Shown one piece after another: positions 4,355 through 53,600 of a DNA stretch of 64,000 nt. Position numbers and translations under genes: made by a program. Below the pieces are notes generated by a model that was not told the origin of the DNA, made no database searches, and saw only the letters and a program-made list of their open reading frames with translations. The stretch lies in NCBI GenBank assembly GCA_004022145.1, contig RCNU01000004.1; one strand, 5' to 3'. Within the stretch, counting starts at the first letter, position 1. Each line of letters starts with the position of its first letter. This DNA is from Paecilomyces variotii (Eukaryota).

Positions 4355-6379
4355 CTCCGGCATTTTCTTCCAATATTCACACCCGACTGGTCGCCTGATC
4401 GGGGAATCGGATGCCTCATATAGATGCCTCAGGTGTCGTTCCGTGCGTTCCTGGCAGCAATTTTCCTCCCGCAGTCGAAGATGGCCTCTCTGGCCGTGCA
4501 CAACAACCTCATGGTTCGTCGGGGAATCGTCGATGAGCCTCAAGAAATGGACCCCGGAAGCGGCGAGCAAGTGCCAGCGAGCCAATCGGTAGCGTCATGG
4601 CCCATCTTGGTCGCTCGATCATTCCTCAACGTGATGGCTTGCTTCCAAATATTGGGACGCTGACAAGTGACAGATCATAAATCCAGATCGCGCTGTGTGG
4701 AGGGGCAACCAAACCCCATCACCTCCAATGTGCTCTACCACTGGCTCATCTTCAGAACGCCGGTCGGCCCATTACGACAGCCATTTACCATCTTGGGCCA
4801 GATACGTGAACGATGCGAGTCATGGGTAATCTAGAGTATTCGCCTCATGTTTAACCGTCATGGCGATGGTCTAGCAACAGTCGCGTCCAGAACCAAGGCC
4901 AGATTGGATTGGGACGGAAACTAATCTTCAACAACCAGTCCTACTCATACGATGATCGACGTATTGGGAAAGAATGATCGCTTCGTCGATGTACCGGTAG
5001 GGCGGAAGACCCGGCGTCTCGAGCGCTAGGTCATCATCGAGACATGCTACATTCCCAATCATTCACTGCGATCCGGTTCGCCCGCTTGTTTGGACCCAGG
5101 GTTGCGGACGTTCCTGAGCGGAAGCTCTCCAGGAAGTGGCATCTATGATTTGAAAGAGTTTTGGCTACGGTGATAGGTTGTTTGGATTCCAGGTCGACGG
5201 GACCATAATGAACCATCTTTACAAACAGTGGGTTCTCGAGCAATGACTGGAGAGTCCAGGAGCGCCAAGCAGTGGGTTCATGATGTGCGTCTGATCGCCC
5301 GTCGATAAACTCCACCATCGCCACAAATAGCACTGCCTGAGGAACGAATGACTGACTATACGAGGCACTGGCGCGGCTGTATGTTATTTACCAACAGTGC
5401 AGTGGGTAAATAATGCGTATGGGTTTTACTGTACGATGAATCTGGGCCGGTAATACTAGCCCCTGATCAGTAAGATATAGATCTCGACCGCAGCAGATGA
5501 TCGAACCAATTTCAACTAACAATGGTCTTATTTTCAGAACCGTTTGATGACGCTTTAGTCTCTTCAACATTGGAACATCCACGGTCCTTCCCGATTCTGC
5601 TAGCCAGATTTCTCCAGCTGATACTGGCCCACCTGGACAGATCGAGATGCTACTAATAGTTCCCGCCAGGAGACCAGGTTTGCACAGACCATCGCTCGCC
5701 GTCAGATCGACCTAGCCTACTCGGGATCCACGCTCCCTAGTGGGATCAATGGACGAGGGAGATCGTATCATATTTGACCTTTTCGGGGAGACTATCTAGT
5801 CTGCTGTGCCCAGACACCGGGTTCCTAAGCCGGAGAATGCAGGCATGTACCGTTTGGGAATCAAGCGCCCTTCCCCTCCATCGTCATCGCAGACATATCT
5901 CGTCCCAGCTGCTCGCGAGGGCCCGTGATAATGACCATGTCTCGTCCACCATGAGCATACAAATCTCCAAACGTCTGAAGATCACACGGCGTCCGAACCG
6001 CAATTTTCCTTAAAGAGGCCCGAATTGTGGCGTTGATCTGGAGATGATGGCTGTGGCTGTCTGGAGTGGCGCCTGGGTGGTACCTGGATAATACATCACA
6101 ATGGCATTCAGCGTAACTACCACTGGTCTTCCCCACAGGTCAATGCACGGTGGCGGCAGATCTTTCAGGGTCTTATGCTGTAATCGCATACGCAGGTCCC
6201 AGACGCCGATCCGGATAAAATACAGGGAAGTGGGTTCATGGCCCGGGCGAGGTGCTCGACGATGAGCAGCAGTTGAACTCTGGAAAGCATCCGAAAGTAA
6301 ATAAGCAGCGGGAAGCTTAAGGTTTAGCCTCGCTCACATTTCAAGAAGAGTGTCTTTGTGGGACGAGGACCGTATCAAG

Positions 6380-7148
6380 CATTCCATCGCCCCATTCCCC
6401 ATATGAGATGCATGATGGACTCTTCGAATCTGCTTAGTGGGTGCTTATGTCCAGATTGGGTCAGATGCAGAACTGCTATCGAGAGACTACCAGATGAGAT
6501 ATGATCCGCAGGGCAGTGGTGCCACCAACTGATTCTCGATACAGTGAGGGATGGCTGTGGGAGGCTTGTAAACCTACTCCAAGATACTCGACGGGCCACA
6601 ACTGCAAGGTCGAGCTGTCAGAAGCTAAACGGCAGGGGAAATCCTATAAACCATTTGAACCCACCCCTCCTTCCCTAGGGAAAGTAAGACAATTCAAACC
6701 TTTCAGTCCTGGCAGATATCTCAGTTAATCACATCCCCTTGCTGAGCCTTCCCATCCAACTCTCCATTTGCCTGAAACCCCAATTCGAGAGCGCGTCTAA
6801 GGGCAATTCTTCCACGAGGAACCAAAGGTCGCCGTCCTGTCCAACCTCCCCAGATTGACGCGCGACTGTCACGACCCTTATTCGAGCGGATTCGTATTCG
6901 ATCGTCCACTGCTAGGACGGTAGGATTGAACCTCGTTCCCGAGGAATCATAACCCACATTCCAGGCCTTGCTTTGGCATCACAGGCACGCGTCGCGTTTG
7001 CCGTCAATCTCTAAAATAGCAATGGCGTTTGAGTGTAAGTCTAATCGTCCCCGCCCTCGAGGCCGGATATATGAGGCGAGGAATTTGTTATTTGACCTCG
7101 TTGTCCCCGGTGCCCTGGACCTGCTTCTCCCTCCACCTGCAACATTCT
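6380..7148 (+). promoter_or_regulatory. brlA proximal promoter region: TATA-like box and candidate AbaA response elements (CATTCY)
   Basis: TATAAA at 6645-6650; CATTCC at 6380-6385, 6393-6398 and 6957-6962, CATTCT at 7143-7148. CATTCY is the established AbaA site and AbaA feeds back on brlA; the motifs are short, so function is inferred. Confidence 0.45.
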
Positions 7149-8630
7149 TTCTCCCGCTCATTACCTAAAGTTTTATCACGTTCCTTTCACCAACTTCAGC
7201 ACGAGTCGAATTCTTTCTTTTCTGTCTCCTGGATTCTTCTCTCTTCACACATCGCAGAAGAAGTTCAAGATCACAGGAGCCTAACAATCATTTGAACAGG
7301 CGGAGACATCATTGATCCTATCCTTAATCAGATCGACCACGAGGACACTGAAGATATGAGATCCGAGTGCAATATGTCTGACAGACTCACCATCGACGTC
7401 GACTGTGGTTCATATGGATCGAGCGAGTGTCCTTCTATGGCCTCGAGTTTCTCGCCTTTGGATTCACCCACCCCGACCCCAACCACTATCTATAGTCAAG
7501 GGTCCCTGGCCTCACCCGGCTGGCCCGACGGACAGTCATTCTCTGGCCATCACTTCGAAACAACCCATGCAACCACTCCTTTGAGGAGCAGCTTCCGTCT
7601 TGCAGAGATGACCTCGGACGGCATGCAGCTGCCCTATGCTAACATGGATGGAAACTTCGATTACTTGCCCGGCTATGCCGACAGCGGCGAGCAGCTCTGG
7701 ATCCAGTCGGACATGCCCAAGGGCTATGACAACGGCAACCCTTTTCCTTATCAGCCAACCATGCCGCAGTACAATCATATGGCTAGGAACTATTACCATG
7801 GCGGCCAGCGTGGTTACCTTCCTGAATCCGTCTCCAACCCCTGCTTGTCCCGTCCTATCTTTCATCAACCAGAACGGCTTCCGAGCTCCATGTCGATGAA
7901 CAGCATCCCACAGTGGATGCCATCTGCAGATGCCATCTCTCCTCAGACTATCACCCCGTCTCAGGCGTTCCCAGAAGCTCCCGTCACGCCGCCTCCTTCC
8001 TACTCCGCGTTCCCCGCCTCCATCCACAGTCTCCGCACTCACACACCGACGACCCCTATTCGATCTAGTCCCATGACGACCTCATCTAGCTCAGGGACGC
8101 CAATGACTCGTGTATCTTGCGGTGGTAATGAGTACATGGAAGATGACTTCAACTTGTCTCCTGGTATGCGTGAAAGTCTCAGACAACGACAGCTCCAGAG
8201 GCGCCCTTCCAAGAAGACCGTTAAGAAGCCGGTCCCCAAGCAGAGCCTCAAGCTTGAGAACTTGCCCTCCATCATCAAGCAGGTTCAGTTCCGATGCAAG
8301 GAGCCAGGTTGTAAAGGTCGATTCAAGAGGCAAGAGCATCTCAAGAGGCACATGAAGAGCCACTCCAAGGAGAAGCCTCATGTATGCTGGGTGCCAGGAT
8401 GCAACCGGGGTTTCTCCAGAAGCGATAACCTCAATGCACACTACACCAAGACTCACAGCAAGAGGGGTGGCCGCAACCGCTATGTTGCTACCCTTGACGA
8501 GACAAGCCCTGACTATGACCCAGACTTCCGCGGTCAATTGACCCCTGATGGTCGTCCCATTTATGGCTCCAAGCTGGATGACCCGATCCCGCAGGCCCAG
8601 GAGACCGACATTGACAACTGGGACGACTAA
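7022..8630 (+). CDS. brlA: BrlA-beta isoform: exons 7022-7034 and 7300-8630, adding a 23-aa N-terminal extension [23 protein letters not shown]
   Basis: ATG GCG TTT GAG T then donor GTAAGT (7035); branch CTAAC 7281-7285; acceptor CAG 7297-7299; the spliced frame is stop-free and in phase with ATG 7356. Confidence 0.75.
7356..8630 (+). CDS. brlA: C2H2 zinc-finger master regulator of conidiophore development BrlA (alpha form, 424 aa)
   Basis: Two C2H2 fingers ([47 protein letters not shown]) followed by [34 protein letters not shown], and N-terminal [19 protein letters not shown], all characteristic of BrlA. Confidence 0.97.
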
Positions 8631-9303
8631 AGGGACCATTATGGTCAGACATCCTCGTTACCGGGAGTTTCTTTTTCCTTCTTTTAGATTGGTACAGACG
8701 CAGGGCAAGGCAGGCCCGGGCTGGCGCTTCACGGCGTACTTGTACAACTCCAAATACCTTTTGTGGCATCTGTTTTTATTTTTTTCTGTCGAATAATTCC
8801 CATTTTGTTATTATCTGGCGTCCATGTTGTGTCTTGTCATCGCTGCATAGTTGGGAACCGTTGATACTCTTATTGGTCTGGATAACGTTTCTATCCTTGT
8901 GTTTTTACTTTTTTTTCTTTTCTTTTTTTGAAGACTCATGTATGATCAAAAGATTCTTGGACGCGTTTGGACATGGAATACGCGATATGGTTTAATATGA
9001 ATTAGATAGTAGTTAGCTGCTAGCTAGCGTCAAGCAATGAGGATAGTTGACAATGACATGAAGTTGAAGTCGAAGATTCCCGTCTCTTGGTCACGTGGTC
9101 AAGTCATCCATCGTATCCAATCGTCGACAACCGACATCCTCGCTTCCTGAGACCTCAATTCTCAGCGCTCAGATACCTCCGTCCCGCCTGTTCATGAAGC
9201 TATACAACAGCTATTCGTAAGTCTTCCTTGTTTTCCTCTTTGCATGGCGCCGTCTCTATGCTGAACTGTATTTTGACCCGCGTGTTCGTGCGTTTGTCTC
9301 GGA

Positions 9304-10566
9304 TCACGCAAACGCTTCCCCGATGCCATCCTCATCTACTCCCAAGCCAATCTTTCCAATAGCCCCACCCTTTTCAATAATTCTATGTCCTTCCCGCAGT
9401 CCGTTAAGTGTCAAACGCAGCCGACGCGTCAAATGACATTTGATTGTGCCGGACTCGATGAGGCCCGTGAGCTCCTTGAGGATCTTGCCATGCGATTCTA
9501 CATCCACATGGTAATATGGCTTGGTTCCAAGCAGACACCAAATGAAAGATAGCGACTTGGCCATGAATTGTGTTCCGTACATTGGTGTGTGGCCCTGGAC
9601 GATCGAGCAGACTTTCCCGAATGGTGCCGCGATTCGACCACAGACTTCCATGTATTGGTCGGTCGTGTGGGTGATGAAAATGTACCTGCGCAAGCAAGAA
9701 GGTTTGTTACAAACGAACGCCGACGGGCCGATATCCGGGAATAATGATATGCTCGGATTCTCTTACCTCAGCGGGACATCTAAGCCCAGCGCATTGATCT
9801 GCTTTTCGAGATCCTCCCTGTGATTGATTACATGCGTCGCGCCCATTTCCTTCACCCATTCGGTCGTATTCGGCCTCGAAGCTGTCGCGATCACCACAGG
9901 CAGATTGAGGACCCGACGTGCTATCTGGATGGCGACAGAACCTACCCCGCCAGATCCATTGATGATGAGTAGAGCCGCACGCTCCCCTTTCGGGATCTCC
10001 AACCTCTCCACCAACGCCTCGTACGCCGTGATATACGTCAAAGGCATGACAGCTGCCTGGGTCCAATCAAGGTTCCGGGGCTTATGGCCCACGCTTCGCT
10101 CGTCAACGACCTGATACTCCGCATTTGAACCCTGCCGGATCGGATTCCCGGAGTAGTAGACATCGTCTCCTTTCTTAAACAGTTCACAATCTTGTCCGAC
10201 TGCTATGACTGTACCCGCCGCATCAAAACCGCAGATCTGGAATGGCCGCGGAGCGTTCGCGTAATAGTCTGGCCGCAGCGTATGATGAGTCCATTGTTAC
10301 ATTAGGTCCAGCCTACGGTAGTCACATACCTGGATAGTCATCATACTTTCCCGCACGGACTTTGGTATCGACTGGATTGACTGAACAGGCTTGAATTCTT
10401 ATTGAGGCTTCGCAGTTAGCACCGATACCACCAAGGGGCTCGTAAAGGACGATGAGATCTCTTACCGCACTAATAAGTCTCGGCCGTCAGGACCTCTTGG
10501 GTCAGGGAGCAGTTTGGGCACAAGATTCTCCACTGGTCCATATTCCTCGACTCCGATCGCCTTCAT
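9304..10566 (-). CDS. Zinc-binding alcohol dehydrogenase / quinone-oxidoreductase-like MDR protein; exons 10566-10466, 10397-10330, 10268-9767, 9685-9304
   Basis: Spliced protein MKAIGVEEYGPVENL...ACSVNPVDTKVRAG...GFDAAG...PLTYITAYEAL...NGSGGVGSVAIQ (Rossmann motif)...GAIGKI; canonical GT-AG introns preserve the frame. Confidence 0.88.
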
Positions 10567-11899
10567 TGCGGTTTAACAGATGTAGTCCCAGGAAAGGAAT
10601 GAAATACCTGCGGAAAGGATCCCAATAAACTAATATTACAGCTGTCTGCATCAATGCTCTATCAATGAACGTTCCACGGGATGGAGTTCAATCTTCTCAG
10701 CTATCAACACCTGAAGCATACAGATATGTCGTCATTATGAAAGGACGTGCGCGTAACTGTCAAGCAGCACCGTTGCACGTCAGCTCTGCAACTCTAATTG
10801 ACCAGCGGATAAATCAACCGATATCTATAATCTGGTGCTGCGCGGCTAATTCTTCAGCATGGCTGTACCAGGCTGACGATCGTCTTTTGGCCTCAATAAT
10901 GCCCAATGTGAGCAACGAATCTCAGGGAGGTTGATAAGTCATAAAACGATCGGCCCCGGTACATTCGGAAGAGGTCACTGGGCTAGATATCCATGCGACA
11001 ATAATTGGTCCTGCGCTAGCTAACAGATCCTAGTCCTCGATAGGGCGCGCCGATGCAGGACCGGTGTTAACCTTTCGGCATTCTTTTCCTTCACGAACCA
11101 CGCGCGCCAACGGCCATAAAAGCCATCCGCGAACTATTTAACTTAGCTAATCTTCAATGAGAGTAAGGCAACAACGCCTGACTTTAACTAGCGAATACGG
11201 CGGCCAGAAAAACTGGAATAAAATCATAAAAACTTGGATAAACTACATAAAGAGTTCAATACTTTTATGGTGATCTTTGGGATCGGCGCTCGTATTCATG
11301 TCTACTGATATGATTGCCATTGATTGGTGTCTTTTTAGGCACGCTATTTCCTTTCCGCCCCCCGAGTTTGTGGCTCTGTTCGGGCCCCCCATCGATCATC
11401 GACACGATGTGCCTGATAGCATGGATCAAGATCTGGCTGACTAGTTAAGCTCAATGAAAATGATGAGTCTCATCAATCACAATGAGTGCCTATCTTCAAG
11501 ACCATTGGATAAAACAGTCATGGTCGGCACCAGCGTTAGTGTTATATAGTAGTCAACTTTAACAGTGATCTCTAGTTGAAAGGTTCACTTATCATTTCGC
11601 CGAAATGGAGTTCGCTCGGCGGTTCGGATATACATCCCCGATTCTTGCGCAGTGTTGGTATTTTTGCCTATTATTATTATCCATGGCATTATTATGCACG
11701 GAAGGTACTGTACATGTGGATCGGTATGATCACTCACAGACTACAGTAGTAACTACTGATTTAACCAGCCACAAAATTTGAAATCTTTCACGGTTCTCTT
11801 ACGTCAGAGTCTTTCCCTGGTTGCTAGCAATGGCAGTTTCGGGTAGTTACTCAGAGCAATTGGGCCTGAGTAACTTCTTTACAACAACTATCTCTTCTA

Positions 11900-47365: not shown

Positions 47366-49056
47366 CATGACATCTTACAGGCGCTGTTACTCGACACGAT
47401 CTTTCTCCATCAATTTACCTCGCTGTTCCTGTACTTCTACGCCTATACTTCGGGGGGGTTGCACATACGATACCCAACATGTCTCTTTATTTCAGCAAAT
47501 GTACACTAGCTAGGGGACGGTATCTTGGTCATCATCGGCTTCGGCGTCGTGCGGAATCTCATGACATACATCTTATCGGATCGGACGTTTGTTTTCTGGT
47601 TGGTCCCATCTCATAGACAAAGATGGTTATGGCCATTTTTTTCTCTTGAAAATCGATGCGGCATTGTGAGCTTTTACTTGTGTCTGGTGCTGTCATCTTT
47701 GGTTCTATTTCTCTGGTTTCTTTCTTCCTTTCTTTCACATCAGCAACGCCTCTTCCGGGAAACGGACTCAGTGTGGCTGGTAGATTGTCTTATTCATTTT
47801 CCATTTCATGCACTCGACTTTTGCGTTTTTCTCCTTCTTCTCGACGGTAATGATAATCACGCTCTATTCTCTCGGGCGGGCAAAGGCGGTTTCCAAATTC
47901 TAGATCTAGGTCGAGGTTTAACATATCCTGTTCTATTTTCCTTGTCTTGACGATGTTTTTTTTTTTTTCTTCCTTTTAGTTTGTATGTATGTACGGAGTA
48001 TGTATCATGAACCCATCATCATCATCAACATCAACAACGATAGGGGAAATGTAAAATCTTTATAATGTAAGGTTACAAATGAATCAATTCTATCTGATTG
48101 TGAGAATGTACATACTATATCCTTCCTAAGAATAAAGAAAGGAAGGAGTAAATATCTGTCTGGCGAATAACGAGTGGACAGAATGAAGTCATCCTCCTGG
48201 CTGGCTGGCTGAGTGTATACATATATGTATATCGAATAGAATAGAGAATTCACTTGTTCAATAAATAAATAGACAGGGGAAAAAAAAAAAGAAAAAAGAA
48301 TATGAACAGAGAGCTAACCAGTGACTGAAGACAATAGTGCTACGATACAATATGATACGAAAGCGAGATATGTATGGATTTGGAATCACCTCGAGCTGAT
48401 TATAGACTATCCTTGAACGAACGACAGACAGGTACAACAAAGGCTCAGCCAAGTAAATCTACGAGGTTGGAGAGCACGAGTCCTCTACGATGAAGATACT
48501 TTTCCATAACACGTATTTCATTCACACTTGGCTAATGACAGGAAGTCAAAATCGAGCCATCTCCAATTCAGGAAAGGCGACAAAGTCCTCAACCGCCATC
48601 AAACCAAGATCATCATGGGTACATACAACTTCCCTCCATCATAGATTCAAATGTTCATGTGCAACGTCAGGGAAAGTGAAATAAAGGGACATGAAAATAG
48701 GAGGGGGGCATTATCGTCGATAGGTACAGTAAGGGGTGATCGCATCTGATACATGAGTGTTGTTTGTTGCATTGTGTCGTGCGCCTTTTCTCCCCTGGCA
48801 TTTTTTATCCATCATGCATGATCCATCATAGTTCGCGTACAAGGGAAATCCAAGATCATGAGGCTGCGATCCAGTAGGGTTGCTTGAGAAGAAAAGAAGT
48901 CATCTATCTTCAGAGAAGAAATCATATGTTGCGTAGATACAGAAGAAGCAGCAGCCTACGGACCGAGTCGAATGACGTCAGCGGGGAAGTTGAAGAAGCG
49001 CGGACACTTCGACGGGAACTAACCTTTTCCAGTTACACTCCGACCCTTCCATTCGT

Positions 49057-49680
49057 TTACAGTCTGGATCCGTGGATCACCTTGTAGTCGACCACCAGCT
49101 CGCGACCTCCGTCGTTGATGACCAGAGCACGAACGCTGCCACGGCCGTCAGCAAAGGCGTCGCTGAGTCTCTCGAAGAGACCACCCTGGTTGAGGACGGG
49201 GACACCCTGCTTGACATCGCCGGTCTCGGTCATGGCGACGACGTGGCCGTCCTCGATGTCCAGGACGCGGTAGGTCTTGTAGACGGGGCCCAGCATGGTC
49301 TGGACGACGACCGAGTCCGAGGGGTTGGAGACGAAGCTCGACTCCTCGTGCAGCTGACGGGTGAACAGGTCGACACCGAGGTAGCGGTGCTGGCCGGTCT
49401 GGGAGGAGACCGAGATGCGGATCACCTGGCAAGGACGGCCCTGGAGGACCAGGAGATCGCCAATGCGGATGAAGTGGCAGGGGATCGGGACGGTGTCGGG
49501 CGGGTGGCCGCTGCGAGGACGAACGACGCGAACATTCTCACGGCGGCGGGCGGGGGCACGCTCCTGGACGACGACGTCCTCCTTGGCCTCGCTGTGGAAG
49601 GGGTGGAGGAAGCGATCGGCCGCACGCTCGACGCCGCGGCGGAAGGAGTGGTAGTGGCCTTCGTCGTCGTAGTAACCCAT
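49057..49680 (-). CDS. hexA: Woronin body major protein HexA/Hex1, AUG-initiated form (207 aa), eIF5A-like fold with C-terminal PTS1 (SRL)
   Basis: MGYYDDEGHYHSFRRG...IPCHFIRIGDLLVLQGRPCQVIRIS...GQHRYLGVDLFT...VVQTMLGPV...ELVVDYKVIHGSRL*. Confidence 0.96.
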   Translation of the reverse strand: MGYYDDEGHYHSFRRGVERAADRFLHPFHSEAKEDVVVQERAPARRRENVRVVRPRSGHPPDTVPIPCHFIRIGDLLVLQGRPCQVIRISVSSQTGQHRYLGVDLFTRQLHEESSFVSNPSDSVVVQTMLGPVYKTYRVLDIEDGHVVAMTETGDVKQGVPVLNQGGLFERLSDAFADGRGSVRALVINDGGRELVVDYKVIHGSRL

Positions 49681-50688
49681 CTTGGTCTTGGGGTCTTTCT
49701 CGTAGACGGTGGTCTTGCTCACGTTGACCTCGGTGGGAGCGGAGTAGCGGCTGCTGGTACGGTAGGCGTCGACGTCTACCTCACGAGTGCTGCTGCGGGA
49801 GTTGTTGCTGCGGTAGGACTCGACGGGCTCGTAAGCACTGGAGGAGTAGGCAGCGTCGACTTCGTAGGTCGGTGGGTGGACGCGACGGCGATATTCACGC
49901 TCGGTGATATCAAGCTGGGACTCAACTTCGGCGCGGTCAGGACCAGGACGGTGATGACCAATGGGGGCACGGTATCTATATGTTTTTTTCAGAGCAGTCA
50001 GACACTATCTCAGCTGGCGCCAGTGGAGAACAACAGTGCCAAACAGTTGATTGGCCGACTAGCAGGATCTTTTCTGAGACACGTAACAAAAGCCATGCGG
50101 TGTGCGGATTTGTTGATCCGGACAGACACGGGATGCGATGCTTGTGCGCCTGCAGGGAATATGGAAAATAGCCTGGAGATCGCGCCACAGCCACCGGAAA
50201 CATGGGGTCTGTGTTTTGTTTTGTTTTGTTTTGTTTTTGTGTTTTTGTTTTATTTTGGGGCTGCAGAAGCACCCGCATCTCGCTCCCAATTGCAAGGAAA
50301 CTGGCCCAGCACTAGAGAACGCTAAAGCAAGGCAAGAAAAAAAACAAAAAAAAACCAAGAGATTGTTAACTTACCGTTCACGAGAAAGCTCTACCTCGGG
50401 GTAACGCTCACGTTCCTCGTAGACGAGATCGGACTCCTCGTAGCGACGAGCTGGGCGACGACGGTCGTCAGAAGTGTAGCGAACGTCGACGTCGACTTCT
50501 TCCTTTCCGTAGACGTTGGGGTCAGGGAGAGGAGCGGCGATTCGAGTATCTTCCCGTCCGACGCGCGAAGTGCGATCCAAGTTGACTTCTCCTTCTACTC
50601 GGGTGTGAGTAGCCTCAGAGACAGCGTCACTCCGGTACGACGACGGGAAGACACTGAAGGGGATGGGGACGCGAGCGTCAAAGTCCAG
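49057..50688 (-). CDS. hexA: Putative long HexA isoform (~410 aa) initiating at CUG 50688; exons 50688-50375 and 49975-49057
   Basis: Donor GTAAGT at 50374, CTGAC branch and TAG acceptor ending at 49976 join LDFDARVPIPFSVFPSSYR...YPEVELSRER to YRAPIGH...LDITEREYRRR...KTK-MGYY in frame; no in-frame Met. The start codon is inferred. Confidence 0.55.
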
Positions 50689-53600
50689 ATTGACTGTCCT
50701 TCGGGCGTCCTTTCTCGAATGCCTTTCGAACTGTTGAAAAACAACTCGAAAGGCGAGACAAGAAAAGACTAAGGGGCTTGAGTCTTCTTGTGAAGGAACT
50801 GGGAGGTGGCGGACGGCGTCTGCGTTCGCTCAACCAGTTTTGATTTACAGAGATACTCAAGAAAGAGGAGAAGAAGGGAAGAAAGACAGAAGAAGCGTGC
50901 ACTGGAATGCTGGGGAAGATGCTAAGCTTCTGGAGTCTGGGGTAAAGTAAGTAATTGTACGGTTGGAATGTTAGCTGTGGAATGGAAGGGAGAAAGAAGG
51001 AGAAGAGGAAAAGAAGAAGAGAAGAGAGGAGAGCGAGAGGAGGGGGATCTTTGTATATCTGACGGGGGGCTGGCGGGGGACGACGGGCTGGCTGGGAAAG
51101 TTATTATTATTATTATTGTTTGGATGTCGTGAAGAGATAAACAACGCGTTACTGCTCCGGGCATCGCGCCGATCCCTGTCTAGATGTGATTCTTTCATTG
51201 TTATTCTTATTGTTTCTCCCCAGCCGAGGAGGAGAGAGAGATAGTCTACAACAGATCCTCCTTACTTCGTTGCCATTGCCATTGCGGACTGCTCCTCTCT
51301 CACTCTGCCATTGGGGGTTCGTATATGTATATTTATATGTACTCCAGGCGTTCTTCGCTGGCAACTCTGGTGGGCTTGTTCATTATTAGTAGACTATGGA
51401 GCTGTCCCCGATCGCTGGAAAAGCTGTCTAAGGTATGGCCTGCAGCAGCAGCAGCAACCAGCGATCCGTTCGTCCATGATTCCCCAGCCATGCAAGAACA
51501 AGAACTCTCTCGCATCGTCTCCTCTTTTTCTTACACGAGGCTGGGTTATGGTAACCTTACGCCTCTAGACTAGTTACCTAGTTAATGATCCATAGATAAT
51601 CAATCCCATGGAAACGCCCCTCGGCTCCCGCTTCTCGTTGCTCCACCTTGCAGCTTTCCTTTTCAGCTCCCCAGCTCAGCTCGCGATGAGGAAGCTCTCT
51701 CTCTCTCTCTCTCTCTTGGCTCTTTGCCATGGCAACCCCCGTCGGGAAAACACACAACTGGTCGGTCTAGAACCCATCTGGACAACCTCGGCGCCACCAT
51801 CCCCTCAAGATTGTGTGCTGAGTCGGACAATCACAGGCCTGTTAACCCGCTGTGTGATAATAATAATAACAACAACAATAGAATCCAGAATCACACCCTA
51901 CTAACTAGTATGTACAAGAGGCAACCGGATCCATTATTATTCTACCCTCTTCTACGCCAGAGCGGAGAATGAGATGGGCTGCATCTTCCCAAGAACTCCA
52001 GCCTCAGCTCCACTGGGCTGAAGGAGGGAACCCCATCAGTATCTAGCAATAATAATTGCTCGCAGAAGGCCAAACAAAAAAACCAAAAAAAAGACGCACA
52101 GGGAAGCGAACCCAGCCTGACTGGGCGAGACAAGCAGCAAGCAAGCAAGCAAGCACGCTTTATCGATACAACTAGAGTCTAGATAGCTCTAGACTACGGA
52201 GTAGACGCGCTGCAAAAGACCGACCTGCCACCATCGTGGTCTGTGTTTATTGGCCCCGACTCAACTCTCTCCATCCTGTTGCTTTCCGTCTCATCCGTGC
52301 ATCGACCTAGTTTAACCACTCACTCTCCACAAGACGCCCCATCCTCTCTCTCTTGTTTCCAAGATCCCAAGCTTGGTCCTTTCCAAAAATTGAAATGGGG
52401 TATTCCCATCGAGGCCGGTGTGCTTTGTGGGTAGTGCGCACTGACCAGACGCATTGATGATATTATTGTTTCTCAGCCCATCGCAGATCTTCTTTATCGA
52501 CAAGACTAGTGGTATCTATCTACGAGTTCTACGGAGTAAATTAATTAATTAATACTCTCTGCAATTCTGATACATATATATTTAACTTACCGCAGGGTAA
52601 GTCAAAAAAAGAAATACTAGACTAAAGGGTGCTAGACTTCAACGCCACCCGACTATGGTAAAACTGCAGCTGTTGCAAATAATAACCTCATACAGTTTTT
52701 GTGTCGGTGAAGGCAGTAAAATACCTAGGTAGGTAAGGCGGACAGCCTAGTAACTATCAGCAGTATTGTTTATTACTAGGTAGTTAGTTAGGTAGCCTAG
52801 CCTTCCTTCCTTCCTTCCTTCTTCCTCTTCTACCAGTGGCTAGTTAGACGCTTTTCAGTCCATGCCTGTGCCCTTCCATCGGGGTCCTCTCTGCGGGCCT
52901 GAATCAGATCTATCTATTTGCTGGGCCCAGCCTTTCTATTTATGTTACCTAGACTATAGATTACTCTTGGCAAGCACACTCAGCTCAGGGTAATTGCTGC
53001 ATGGGCCATGAACGAATGGTCAGCCTTATTTACCGAGGGAAAATAATGGGCTGGGGGATCGAATTCTGCATTTTCGTCTCGTTGTGGCTATATACGGCAA
53101 TTATTAGTGTAAACATACGGAGTAGTTACTGCGTAGTAATTCTCTAGAATCCTCGATATAGAGAGGTTGCTACTTTAATATCACTCAGTACAACCCCCAG
53201 CTTAGATAAAGATGTACGCAGTAGACCATACAGTTGTTCGCAGCGCCCCTGACTGCGCATATTAAATCTGATCGATTACTCAGGTCCGCTCAGGCCTATA
53301 TTATGATTATCTGGATCATGTCTTTTCTGAAACGAGAGAAACCACAAAAACCACAAGCGCACATTACCATAACTGGTTCATTCGACCAAAAAGACACGGA
53401 GGCATGGACATGCTATACTCAGTCAATTAATCGTCCGTTCGTGGCTGCAATATAACATCGGGCACGTATCACATAACGGACAAGAAACAGTATTATGGGG
53501 ATTACTTCTTCCATGCGTAGATTTGAAAAGAAAAGAAAAAGAAGAACGAAAAAAGAAAGAAGAAAGAAGAAGGAAACAAAAAAGGTGATTAGAAGAATTG

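Follow-up and report, generated by a model that had tools for sequence, protein, structure and literature searches.

Paecilomyces variotii hexA very probably makes a ~47-kDa form from a CUG codon kept in distant filamentous ascomycetes, beside the 23-kDa HexA

HEX-1/HexA is a textbook builder of an organelle core, and research on many fungi has treated it as a factor in virulence and stress. In animals, FGF2 and MYC produce CUG-initiated long isoforms beside their AUG-initiated forms through leaky scanning. For cpc-1 of Neurospora crassa, an N-terminal extension initiated at near-cognate codons has been described across the Pezizomycotina (Ivanov et al. 2017, PMC5487733); the main text of that paper makes no mention of hex-1 or Woronin bodies. 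Hex1/HexA itself is known to form splice isoforms from an intron near the MGYYDD codons, such as the 188- and 209-aa forms of V. dahliae (PMC7762394). The parts of PMC7762394 drawn on here treat N-terminal extensions as annotation errors and summarise antibody work in which only small Hex1 forms appear, which counts against a long form. We found no report of a CUG-started long HexA in the searchable literature, and the peptide strings of its extension were not found in the paper texts searched. Here we compare the hexA locus of P. variotii with its relatives. The comparison suggests that hexA very probably makes the 23-kDa HexA, which is already known, and a form of ~47 kDa, started at a CUG kept in distant filamentous ascomycetes.

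The window, a stretch of 64,000 nucleotides of P. variotii DNA, carries hexA on its minus strand, on which all features given below lie. The canonical HexA core runs from MGYY to the PTS1 SRL and its stop (49057..49680; 207 aa, 23.2 kDa) as one uninterrupted exon, with A at -3 and G at +4 of its AUG at 49680 and the stop codon at 49059-49057. It begins with MGYYDDEG and terminates in HGSRL, the MGYYDD start and the PTS1 being invariant in 15 of 15 aligned cores. Matches to Pfam PF21485 (32.8 bits, cut-off 27.1) and PF01287 (26.0 bits, cut-off 24.2) identify an eIF5A-like two-domain core, and many of its 1,240 homologues at E <= 1e-5 are named Woronin body major protein. Upstream of the ATG the frame stays open for 98 codons, to 49974; together with the last base of a split codon, these make up the AUG-free exon-2 part of the extension (49681..49975). 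A GT-AG intron of 399 nt in phase 2 (49976..50374), with a GTAAGT donor, a CTGAC branch-like site and a TATAG acceptor, joins this open frame to the next one and has an in-frame TAA at its start. Exon 1 contributes 104 codons and two bases to the extension (50375..50688); this part holds the conserved N-terminal peptide (residues 1-21) and opens with the proposed CUG start of the long HexA (50686..50688). The nearest in-frame stop upstream of this CUG is a TGA 48 codons away (50830..50832). Our sequence checks agree with the initial annotation on the MGYY AUG, the 98 open codons, the 399-nt intron and the frame reaching back to the TGA. A second GT-AG intron, of 68 nt (48956..49023; GTTAGT...TAG), lies in the 3' UTR and begins 33 nt past the hexA stop codon.

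The structure of the mRNA was read from RNA contigs of three studies (X1, X4 and X9). The only joints reported within hexA are those of the 399-nt intron (49975/50375) and of the 68-nt intron, each in X1, X4 and X9. The contigs are unspliced over 50731 (X1, 50375-50976; X4, 50644-50945; X9, 50690-51153). The X1 contig 50375-50976 has a word depth of 5,553, and upstream of 51040 the depth is 2.75-23. At its 5' end the abundant RNA contig reaches 50976 or further, which places its limit upstream of 50688 and gives the CUG an AUG-free 5' leader of at least 288 nt in continuous RNA (50689..50976). Transcription itself probably begins within or close to a CT-rich tract at ~50990-51040, and low-depth contigs that extend to 51153 (X9) and 51181 (X4) imply that some transcripts begin further upstream. 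Contig-based evidence can miss rare splice variants. A further run, X2, was left out as RNA evidence because its depth was even over the intron and its flanks and its contigs were long and chimeric, as in DNA or a mixed assembly.

As the initial annotation had stated, the exon-like parts are free of ATGs in all frames (none in the 787 nt of 50375-51161 and none in the 295 nt of 49681-49975, a spliced leader of 1,082 nt) whereas the intron bears three. From the TGA at 50832-50830 through the intron joint to MGYY, 250 codons pass without a Met. The ~17 ATGs once given as the expectation hold for uniform composition but not for the leader's own dinucleotide content, under which 3.7 are expected; 1.25% of 2,000 dinucleotide-preserving shuffles had no ATG. 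The ATG-free gaps of 886 nt and 416 nt exceed all others on the window's minus strand. Taken from this window by itself, the depletion is suggestive and not overwhelming, and it becomes decisive only together with the orthologues. In 23 distinct contigs the frame runs from CTG to MGYY without interruption, and 22 of them end in SRL. Their sequence upstream of the MGYY AUG totals 24,659 nt and contains 0 ATGs where 81.4 would be expected, while the core downstream in the same contigs holds 220 versus 205 expected. The open frames span 216-363 codons in all 23.

The CTG at 50688-50686 stands within GTCAAT-CTG-G (C at -4, A at -3, G at +4) and opens LDFDARVPIPFSVFPSSYR, as a renewed reading of the sequence bore out. 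The LDFDARV block, which the initial annotation had linked to long annotated Hex1 models, is indeed present there, in named models from Eurotiales, Onygenales, lichen-forming fungi and many Sordariomycetes. When related metagenome and metatranscriptome loci were fished with a pattern that left the Leu/CTG codon out, the Leu codon before DFDARVPIPF turned out to be CTG in 80 of 80. Many of these loci are near-duplicates; they amount to 56 distinct sequences in 34 clusters at 90% identity, and the CTG, the A at -3, the C at -4 and the G at +4 are each present in 56/56. The codon preceding the CTG encodes N, I or K, yet its first base is always A. Four-fold and six-fold sites a few codons past the CTG use 3-6 codons each, indicating free synonymous change. 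The bases around the CTG are also highly conserved (GAC in 52/56, TTT in 53/56, GAC in 51/56), so that an invariant CTG alone cannot separate a start codon from another constraint at the RNA level.

The boundary of conservation bears on the same codon. Across the 56 distinct sequences, amino-acid conservation starts exactly at the CTG; at codons -3 to -5 the sequence is hypervariable, with TGA occurring four times and TAG three times, and in-frame stops lie 4-5 codons upstream of the CTG in 7 distinct sequences. Upstream of it, gene models from various species translate the conserved leader sequence in three different frames, indicating that this sequence is not coding, and the switch from frame-independent to frame-dependent conservation is sharp at the CTG. 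In P. variotii no CTG, GTG, TTG, ACG or ATH lies in frame between the TGA at 50832-50830 and the CTG, and 44 of 59 distinct leaders likewise have none between the nearest stop and the CTG. Some gene models begin with M exactly here: P0314 from Chrysothrix sp., an Arthoniomycete (402 aa, carrying no 'partial' label), for which the ATG is deduced from the protein, and the gene calls P0134, P0197 and P0190, in which M may mean a non-ATG start. Searches of the loci with the M-starting gene calls (tblastn) gave relatives of at most 81% identity only.

Downstream of the CTG, the extension behaves as a protein-coding region in comparisons between species. Its dN/dS is 0.20-0.51 in 11/11 pairs, with 0.04-0.29 for the core, indicating that the extension is under purifying selection. 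The exon-1 part is matched by 76 library proteins at E <= 0.001, and of 233 candidate stretches 206 contain relatives by tblastn. Conservation within the extension is highest in the peptide that immediately follows the CTG, and the conservation profile reveals a further island, DITEREYR, in the exon-2 part. No Pfam family matched the exon-1 part, for which AlphaFold2 predicts no secondary structure (mean pLDDT 56); a predicted complex of the HexA core with the exon-1 extension scored 0.00 in a run without controls, which is no verdict for or against binding. The initial annotation had named four findings that would speak against a CUG start. Three of these came out in its favour: contigs X1, X4 and X9 are unbroken where an AUG exon was to be spliced into 50731, the 5' limit of the RNA contradicts a transcription start downstream of 50688, and the Leu codon does not vary among its synonyms. 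The computational tests it had proposed, namely whether coding conservation begins at the Leu codon, whether that codon stays CTG in a conserved context, whether orthologous leaders are AUG-free and what dN/dS the extension has, all gave the answer that it favoured.

A conserved two-tier RNA hairpin of 11 + 15 bp (63 nt; 50707..50769), defined by folding and a covariance model, has its 3' end 18 nt from the CUG. Its loop and 3' arm consist of the acceptor-like TTTTCAACAG ending at 50731. A fold of 151 nt reaches -50.5 kcal/mol (z = -4.65), and 0 of 200 shuffles equal it. The consensus of 22 sequences contains 25 pairs at -31.9 kcal/mol, with 96.5% of cells paired versus 41-62% when slid, and six pairs are changed on both sides. 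This subset was used because MAFFT with RNAalifold on all 35 leaders yielded 5 pairs only, a result of divergent hairpins being misaligned. The covariance model matches the sense strand in the window and in 74 of the 80 loci. It misses L050, L051, L053, L054, L062 and L076, of which L050, L051, L062 and L076 fold as single sequences into a similarly shaped hairpin of different sequence. The hairpin matched no Rfam family. Inside the intron, Rfam hits to mir-3910 (24 bits versus a cut-off of 95) and CrcZ (15 versus 95) were taken as chance. A stable hairpin in the leader counts against initiation at the CUG, since it is expected to hinder scanning.

We consider it highly likely that one spliced hexA mRNA carries two starts in the same frame, the CUG at 50688 (410 aa) and the AUG at 49680 (207 aa). 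In the proposed mechanism, 43S complexes would scan an AUG-free leader of ~300 nt, traversing the conserved hairpin, and a fraction would initiate with Met-tRNAi at CUG 50688, whose context is near-optimal. The product would be a HexA of 410 aa and 46.8 kDa, composed of the N-terminal peptide M/L-DFDARVPIPFSVFPSSYR, a presumably disordered linker of ~180 residues in which Arg, Glu, Ser, Val, Asp, Pro and Tyr are frequent, and the core, which forms the lattice and carries the PTS1. Complexes missing the CUG would scan on through 609 nt without an AUG in any frame and initiate at AUG 49680 to give the known 207-aa HexA. The data directly show how the mRNA is built, that it lacks AUGs, that the CTG and its context are fixed, where coding conservation sets in and that the extension is under purifying selection; use of the CUG in vivo, and the ratio of the two forms, we infer.

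Other readings of the locus were weighed against this one. The deposited NCBI model of P. variotii (P0003, 472 aa) begins with MAMATK from an ATG at 51282 and uses two extra introns, so that the long form would start at an AUG of an upstream exon joined by splicing to the acceptor-like site that ends at 50731. The contigs of low depth reaching 51153 and 51181 are compatible with such an exon, and a rare splice variant could escape contigs. However, no joint from upstream ATG exons into 50731 is reported in X1, X4 or X9, and the 'acceptor' belongs to the conserved hairpin; P0003, moreover, drops the genuine SRL-bearing C-terminus. Ahead of the conserved block, 14 long models have mutually unrelated sequences, as do the 120 motif-bearing proteins listed, and 21 cDNA-like orthologous contigs are without any upstream ATG. 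Because the RNA contigs continue across 50731, the ATG exons annotated upstream appear to be artefacts, and we regard a start in one of them as hardly credible.

It is also conceivable, if very improbable, that the extension is untranslated and that the open frame and its conservation reflect constraint on a long structured 5' UTR controlling translation or localisation of hexA mRNA. The conserved RNA structure of the leader and the high nucleotide conservation around the CTG fit such a UTR, as do the small Hex1 proteins that are the only ones described in the portions of PMC7762394 drawn on here. Yet RNA constraint of this kind does not account for frames open in every one of the 23 contigs, for the dN/dS of the extension, for amino acids that are kept while four-fold sites change freely, or for the sharp onset of frame-dependent conservation at the CTG. 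In a further reading, which we find improbable, the extension would be translated, but initiation would be shared among several near-cognate codons before or after 50688 and not confined to this CUG, as in N. crassa cpc-1, which according to the text of PMC5487733 cited here uses several. In 15 of 59 distinct leaders there is indeed a further in-frame upstream CTG, TTG, GTG or ATH; but these extra codons have no positional conservation, the other 44 leaders have none, and nearby stops bar them in the 7 distinct sequences mentioned above. Starts downstream of the CTG would make the best-conserved peptide pointless, which counts against them.

If initiation does occur at the single CUG, the fate of the long form invites speculation. 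Possibly, although we hold this with considerable doubt, it cannot be packed inside the HEX lattice and would come to lie on the surface, where its peptide could be offered to the membrane sorting or tethering machinery or to the septal pore, or could limit crystal growth; the hairpin might set the CUG:AUG ratio or the localisation of the mRNA. The broader form of this proposal strikes us as unlikely: at least four classes would make CUG-started HexA, the peptide on its disordered arm would link the HEX crystal to a membrane or tether or cap lattice growth, and the hairpin would be an RNA switch for the ratio of forms or an mRNA localiser. Should that unlikely reading hold, Woronin-body assembly or tethering would rely on a protein missed by 25 years of AUG-based work.

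Knock-ins, GFP fusions and complementation constructs commonly start from the MGYYDD AUG. Constructs of this design would omit the long form, or delete it along with the short one, and a 47-kDa proteoform that is conserved and has an N-terminal motif of its own would have to be studied by separate genetics. A CUG start would explain the hundreds of mutually inconsistent long Hex1 models made by predictors, which the text of PMC7762394 considered here dismisses as errors. The long hexA CDS would be annotated from the CTG and not from invented ATG exons. The locus would also offer a very clean natural case of CUG initiation, with one fixed codon, ~0.9 kb of AUG-free mRNA and a flanking conserved hairpin.

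The two-start hexA mRNA can be set beside the systems described above. It resembles FGF2 and MYC in an upstream in-frame CUG that would be passed by leaky scanning to yield an N-terminally extended proteoform; it differs in kingdom and protein, in the unusual length of its AUG-free stretch, and in a hairpin upstream and not downstream of the CUG. The splice isoforms of Hex1 share with the CUG form the gene, the common core and the PTS1, and differ on the N-terminal side. As described in the portions of PMC7762394 used here, both splice isoforms begin at the MGYYDD AUG and are ~20 residues apart, whereas the CUG form would start 203 codons upstream and double the mass. [quoted passage not shown] The cpc-1 leader, however, has AUG uORFs and at least three candidate near-cognate codons, while hexA has ~900 nt of spliced mRNA without an AUG and a single fixed CUG at the boundary of conservation, with a hairpin just upstream, and encodes an abundant structural protein instead of a transcription factor.

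On its minus strand, at 48.9-51.0 kb, the window encodes the Woronin body major protein HexA/Hex1; the gene's best database match is the deposited model P0003, labelled Paecilomyces variotii, with 100% identity across the shared part. The core ORF translates from ATG 49680 (MGYYDDEG...) to a C-terminal ...HGSRL, followed by the stop at 49059-49057 (minus strand), and a Pfam search found two eIF5A-like domains in it. Upstream of AUG 49680, 98 codons stay open in the core frame up to a 399-nt phase 2 intron (GTAAGT...TATAG, 50374-49976, minus strand), which joins them to a further open stretch extending upstream to a TGA at 50832-50830. Three ATGs lie inside the intron, and none is found in any frame in the exonic leader parts (50375-51161 and 49681-49975, minus strand). 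The initial annotation had described the open frame, the intron, the TGA limit and the AUG-free exonic parts correctly, as re-reading the sequence confirmed. Its 17 expected ATGs were too generous: the leader's own dinucleotide content predicts 3.7, and 1.25% of 2,000 shuffles were ATG-free. The intron also carries (AAAAC)n-like simple-repeat runs (50215-50262, minus strand), and sub-threshold Rfam matches are likewise intronic.

Public RNA contigs were placed on positions 48500-52300. Run X1, which carries the same organism code as the window's DNA runs, reached a word depth of 5,500-10,800 over the exons, as against 38-94 within the intron and 2.75-23 on the upstream side of 51040. Contigs of X1, X4 and X9, from three studies, all show the joint 49975/50375. 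An upstream AUG-containing exon spliced to the acceptor-like TTTTCAACAG (ending at 50731), or a transcript 5' end downstream of 50688, had been named as fatal to a CUG start. No joint into this site was reported among the RNA contigs on 48500-52300, data from which rare splice variants could escape; contigs from X4 (50644-50945) and X9 (50690-51153) cross 50731 unspliced, and a single unbroken X1 contig spans 50375-50976. The abundant hexA mRNA therefore has a leader of at least 288 nt before CTG 50688, and after splicing 609 more AUG-free nucleotides separate CTG and main AUG. Low-depth contigs extend to 51153-51181, so a small share of transcripts may be longer; such weak X4/X9 transcripts would take in an out-of-frame ATG at 51164 that begins a reading frame of about 80 codons. 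Beyond the hexA promoter, the upstream region has a low-depth X1 contig (51152-52300; word depth 23 versus more than 5,000 on hexA) and a (GA)n run (about 51690-51715, minus strand). In the 3' UTR, a 68-nt GT-AG intron 33 nt past the stop (49023-48956, minus strand) has been removed from the dominant contigs in all three runs.

The deposited P0003, of 472 aa, takes ATG 51282 as its start and uses two introns without RNA support. It reads the 68-nt 3' UTR intron as coding, and a further invented intron removes the PTS1, so that read-through replaces the true C-terminus including SRL. We rejected it as the true HexA model: it is an artefact of a forced ATG start, and the RNA contigs lack its two upstream introns. 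Fourteen long HexA models from Thermoascus, Penicillium, Talaromyces, Aspergillus, Monascus, Histoplasma and Coccidioides all reach the same conserved block after starting with M-peptides that bear no relation to one another. Hundreds of public long Hex1/HexA models (P0003-P0122 and P0198-P0313) have predictor inventions as their unrelated first 10-120 residues, and some, marked 'partial', start directly at NLDFD. One paper blames 'hypervariable N-terminal extensions' of Hex1 on faulty annotation (PMC7762394). Systematic re-annotation from the CTG start would supersede these mispredicted models.

A protein motif pattern that left the residue at the CTG position free matched 120 of 197 collected proteins, and Leu occupies that position in all 120. 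The residue before it is N, K, T or I in the protein alignment, and the codons of all four begin with A. Just upstream, the window's FERHSRKD appears as RKAFEKG or SKGIRE in other species' models, the same nucleotides being read in the other two frames, which indicates, at the level of sequence comparison, that this stretch is conserved as nucleic acid and not as protein. Metagenome contigs were scanned with a peptide pattern downstream of the Leu codon, leaving the codon itself unbiased; 233 candidate stretches yielded 206 confirmed relatives, and CTG is present in all of the best 80 of these 206, which were kept as loci. Deduplication gave 56 distinct sequences including the window; compared over their first 300 nt, they form 34 clusters at 90% nucleotide identity and 26 at 85%. 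Every one has the CTG codon with A at −3, C at −4 and G at +4, and 55 have G at −6; the preceding codon is AAT (37), AAC (14), ATC (3) or AAA (2). The Leu codon thus does not vary freely among synonyms, the behaviour that the initial annotation had named as counter-evidence, and coding conservation begins where it had placed the start. Each column of codons −3 to −5 holds between 6 and 9 kinds of residue or stop (TGA four times, TAG three times). From codon +1 the amino acids are conserved, with variation at 4-fold/6-fold sites: Ala uses 4 codons, Arg 5 (with Lys as a replacement), and Pro and Ser 4 each. No in-frame CTG, GTG, TTG, ACG or ATH separates the CTG from its nearest upstream stop in 44 of 59 distinct leaders, and in seven distinct leaders that stop lies only 4-5 codons away. 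Because the three codons following CTG are also almost fixed in nucleotide sequence among the 56, CTG invariance alone is no proof of start-codon constraint; the comparative case draws on the coding boundary, the sequence context and the upstream stops as well.

The frame runs uninterrupted from CTG through MGYY in 23 distinct contigs, 22 of them to SRL and one stopping at the contig edge. Twenty-one are cDNA-like, with no intron and 102-426 nt before the CTG, and the remaining pair are genomic and intronless. Ahead of the main AUG the 23 contigs contain 0 ATGs in 24,659 nt (81.4 expected), versus 220 in the core downstream (205 expected). The CTG-to-AUG distance ranges from 648 to 1,089 nt with the frame open in all 23, and dN/dS in 11 of 11 pairs was 0.20-0.51 for the extension and 0.04-0.29 for the core. 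The AUG-free leader and coding extension proposed for the window therefore recur in its orthologues. Open frames of varying length, AUG absence and dN/dS values point to a protein-coding extension under moderate constraint, with no AUG to start its translation and, as judged from these contigs, none that would keep scanning ribosomes from the main AUG. The two genomic loci, L048 and L061, fall in a single 90% cluster; the intron interrupting the window's extension is absent from both, and their CTG-to-SRL frame spans 444 codons. In one clade, the L034-L046 group, position −3 of the main MGYY AUG is G (CTTGAC-ATG-G); outside the related L034/L055/L056 group, all 14 contigs have A there. Lineages may differ in how initiation is divided between the two starts.

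We consider CUG 50688 very probably a real start codon. Leaky scanning on one mRNA would then serve two in-frame starts, the CUG giving the long form and the AUG the short form. That the long form begins instead at an AUG in an upstream exon is scarcely credible, being contradicted by both the RNA contigs and the orthologous cDNA-like contigs. A leader conserved yet untranslated is very unlikely, since its frames stay open, its dN/dS values point to coding and synonymous variation is seen. Initiation could also be diffuse, spread over several near-cognate codons; upstream in-frame stops near the CUG and the conserved peptide immediately behind it argue against this reading, which we regard as improbable.

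Started at the CUG, the window's HexA is predicted to have 410 residues (46.8 kDa with Met first; core 23.2 kDa). Its extension comprises 203 residues with a pI of 5.3 (R 14%, E 12%, S 11%, V 10%, D 8%, P 8%, Y 7%). Among 23 full-length forms, conservation is focused on residues 1-21, islands at about 31-35 and 43-46, and DITEREYR in exon 2. A Pfam search found no family in the extension, and AlphaFold2 on the first 104 residues (40-row alignment) gave a mean pLDDT of 56, a pTM of 0.14 and no secondary structure, so that the extension looks like a disordered arm tipped by a short conserved motif. Such a 203-residue arm should be unfit for packing inside the crystalline core, and for this reason a surface or adaptor role of the N-terminal peptide is our preferred, if tentative, guess.

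The leader also contains a two-tier RNA hairpin of 11 + 15 pairs (50769-50707, minus strand), a frame-independent conserved segment whose 3' end is 18 nt from the CUG; its loop and 3' arm make up the acceptor-like site of the initial annotation. A 151-nt fold of the region reached −50.5 kcal/mol (z = −4.65). Judged by eye from dot-brackets, nearly all single-sequence folds of 48 distinct leaders have the same nested shape, the exceptions being L038 (different) and L017 (inner stem only). In those leaders whose final structure ahead of the CUG is the outer helix, the gap measures 12-18 nt, mostly 16; across L001-L080 the hairpin sits about 16-21 nt before the CTG, a conserved spacing. The RNAalifold consensus of 22 alignable sequences contains 25 pairs and has an energy of −31.9 kcal/mol; pairing holds in 96.5% of cells, versus 41-62% with the partner slid, and six pairs are altered on both sides in a compensatory manner. 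The covariation score was 0.257 versus 0.204 shuffled (0 of 500 shuffles as high), statistics uncorrected for how closely the sequences are related. The covariance model derived from these 22, which match by construction, has sense-strand matches in 74 of 80 loci plus the window, with scores roughly double those of the antisense echo. Of the six loci it missed, four were folded singly and give a like-shaped hairpin of different sequence. An Rfam search matched no family to the hairpin. It may refold at the 40S mRNA channel exit with the CUG occupying the P site, may throttle scanning, or may be a localisation signal.

Named models with the conserved block come from Eurotiales, Onygenales, lichen-forming fungi and many Sordariomycetes, including Fusarium, Ilyonectria, Xylaria, Hypoxylon, Colletotrichum, Rhypophila, Ophiocordyceps and Cytospora. 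By genus name the lichen-forming fungi are Lecanoromycetes, and the other class placements, Sordariomycetes included, likewise follow the genus names. The Chrysothrix sp. model P0314 (402 aa) has M precisely at the CTG position, followed by DFDARVPIPISVFPSSY. As a eukaryotic model listed without a 'partial' label, it presumably has an ATG first codon; if so, this would be a classical AUG/non-AUG interchange, a hallmark of a start site. No report of a CUG-started or N-terminally extended HexA was found in the full-text literature searched, and subscription hex1/hexA papers and supplements may hold prior notice. Hex-1 is absent from the main text of the cpc-1 paper (PMC5487733), and 'Woronin body' and 'non-AUG' occur in unrelated places in PMC11413187; both terms are also present in PMC11842775 and PMC9549241. 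The mechanism is already known; the hexA case is new and unusually clean.
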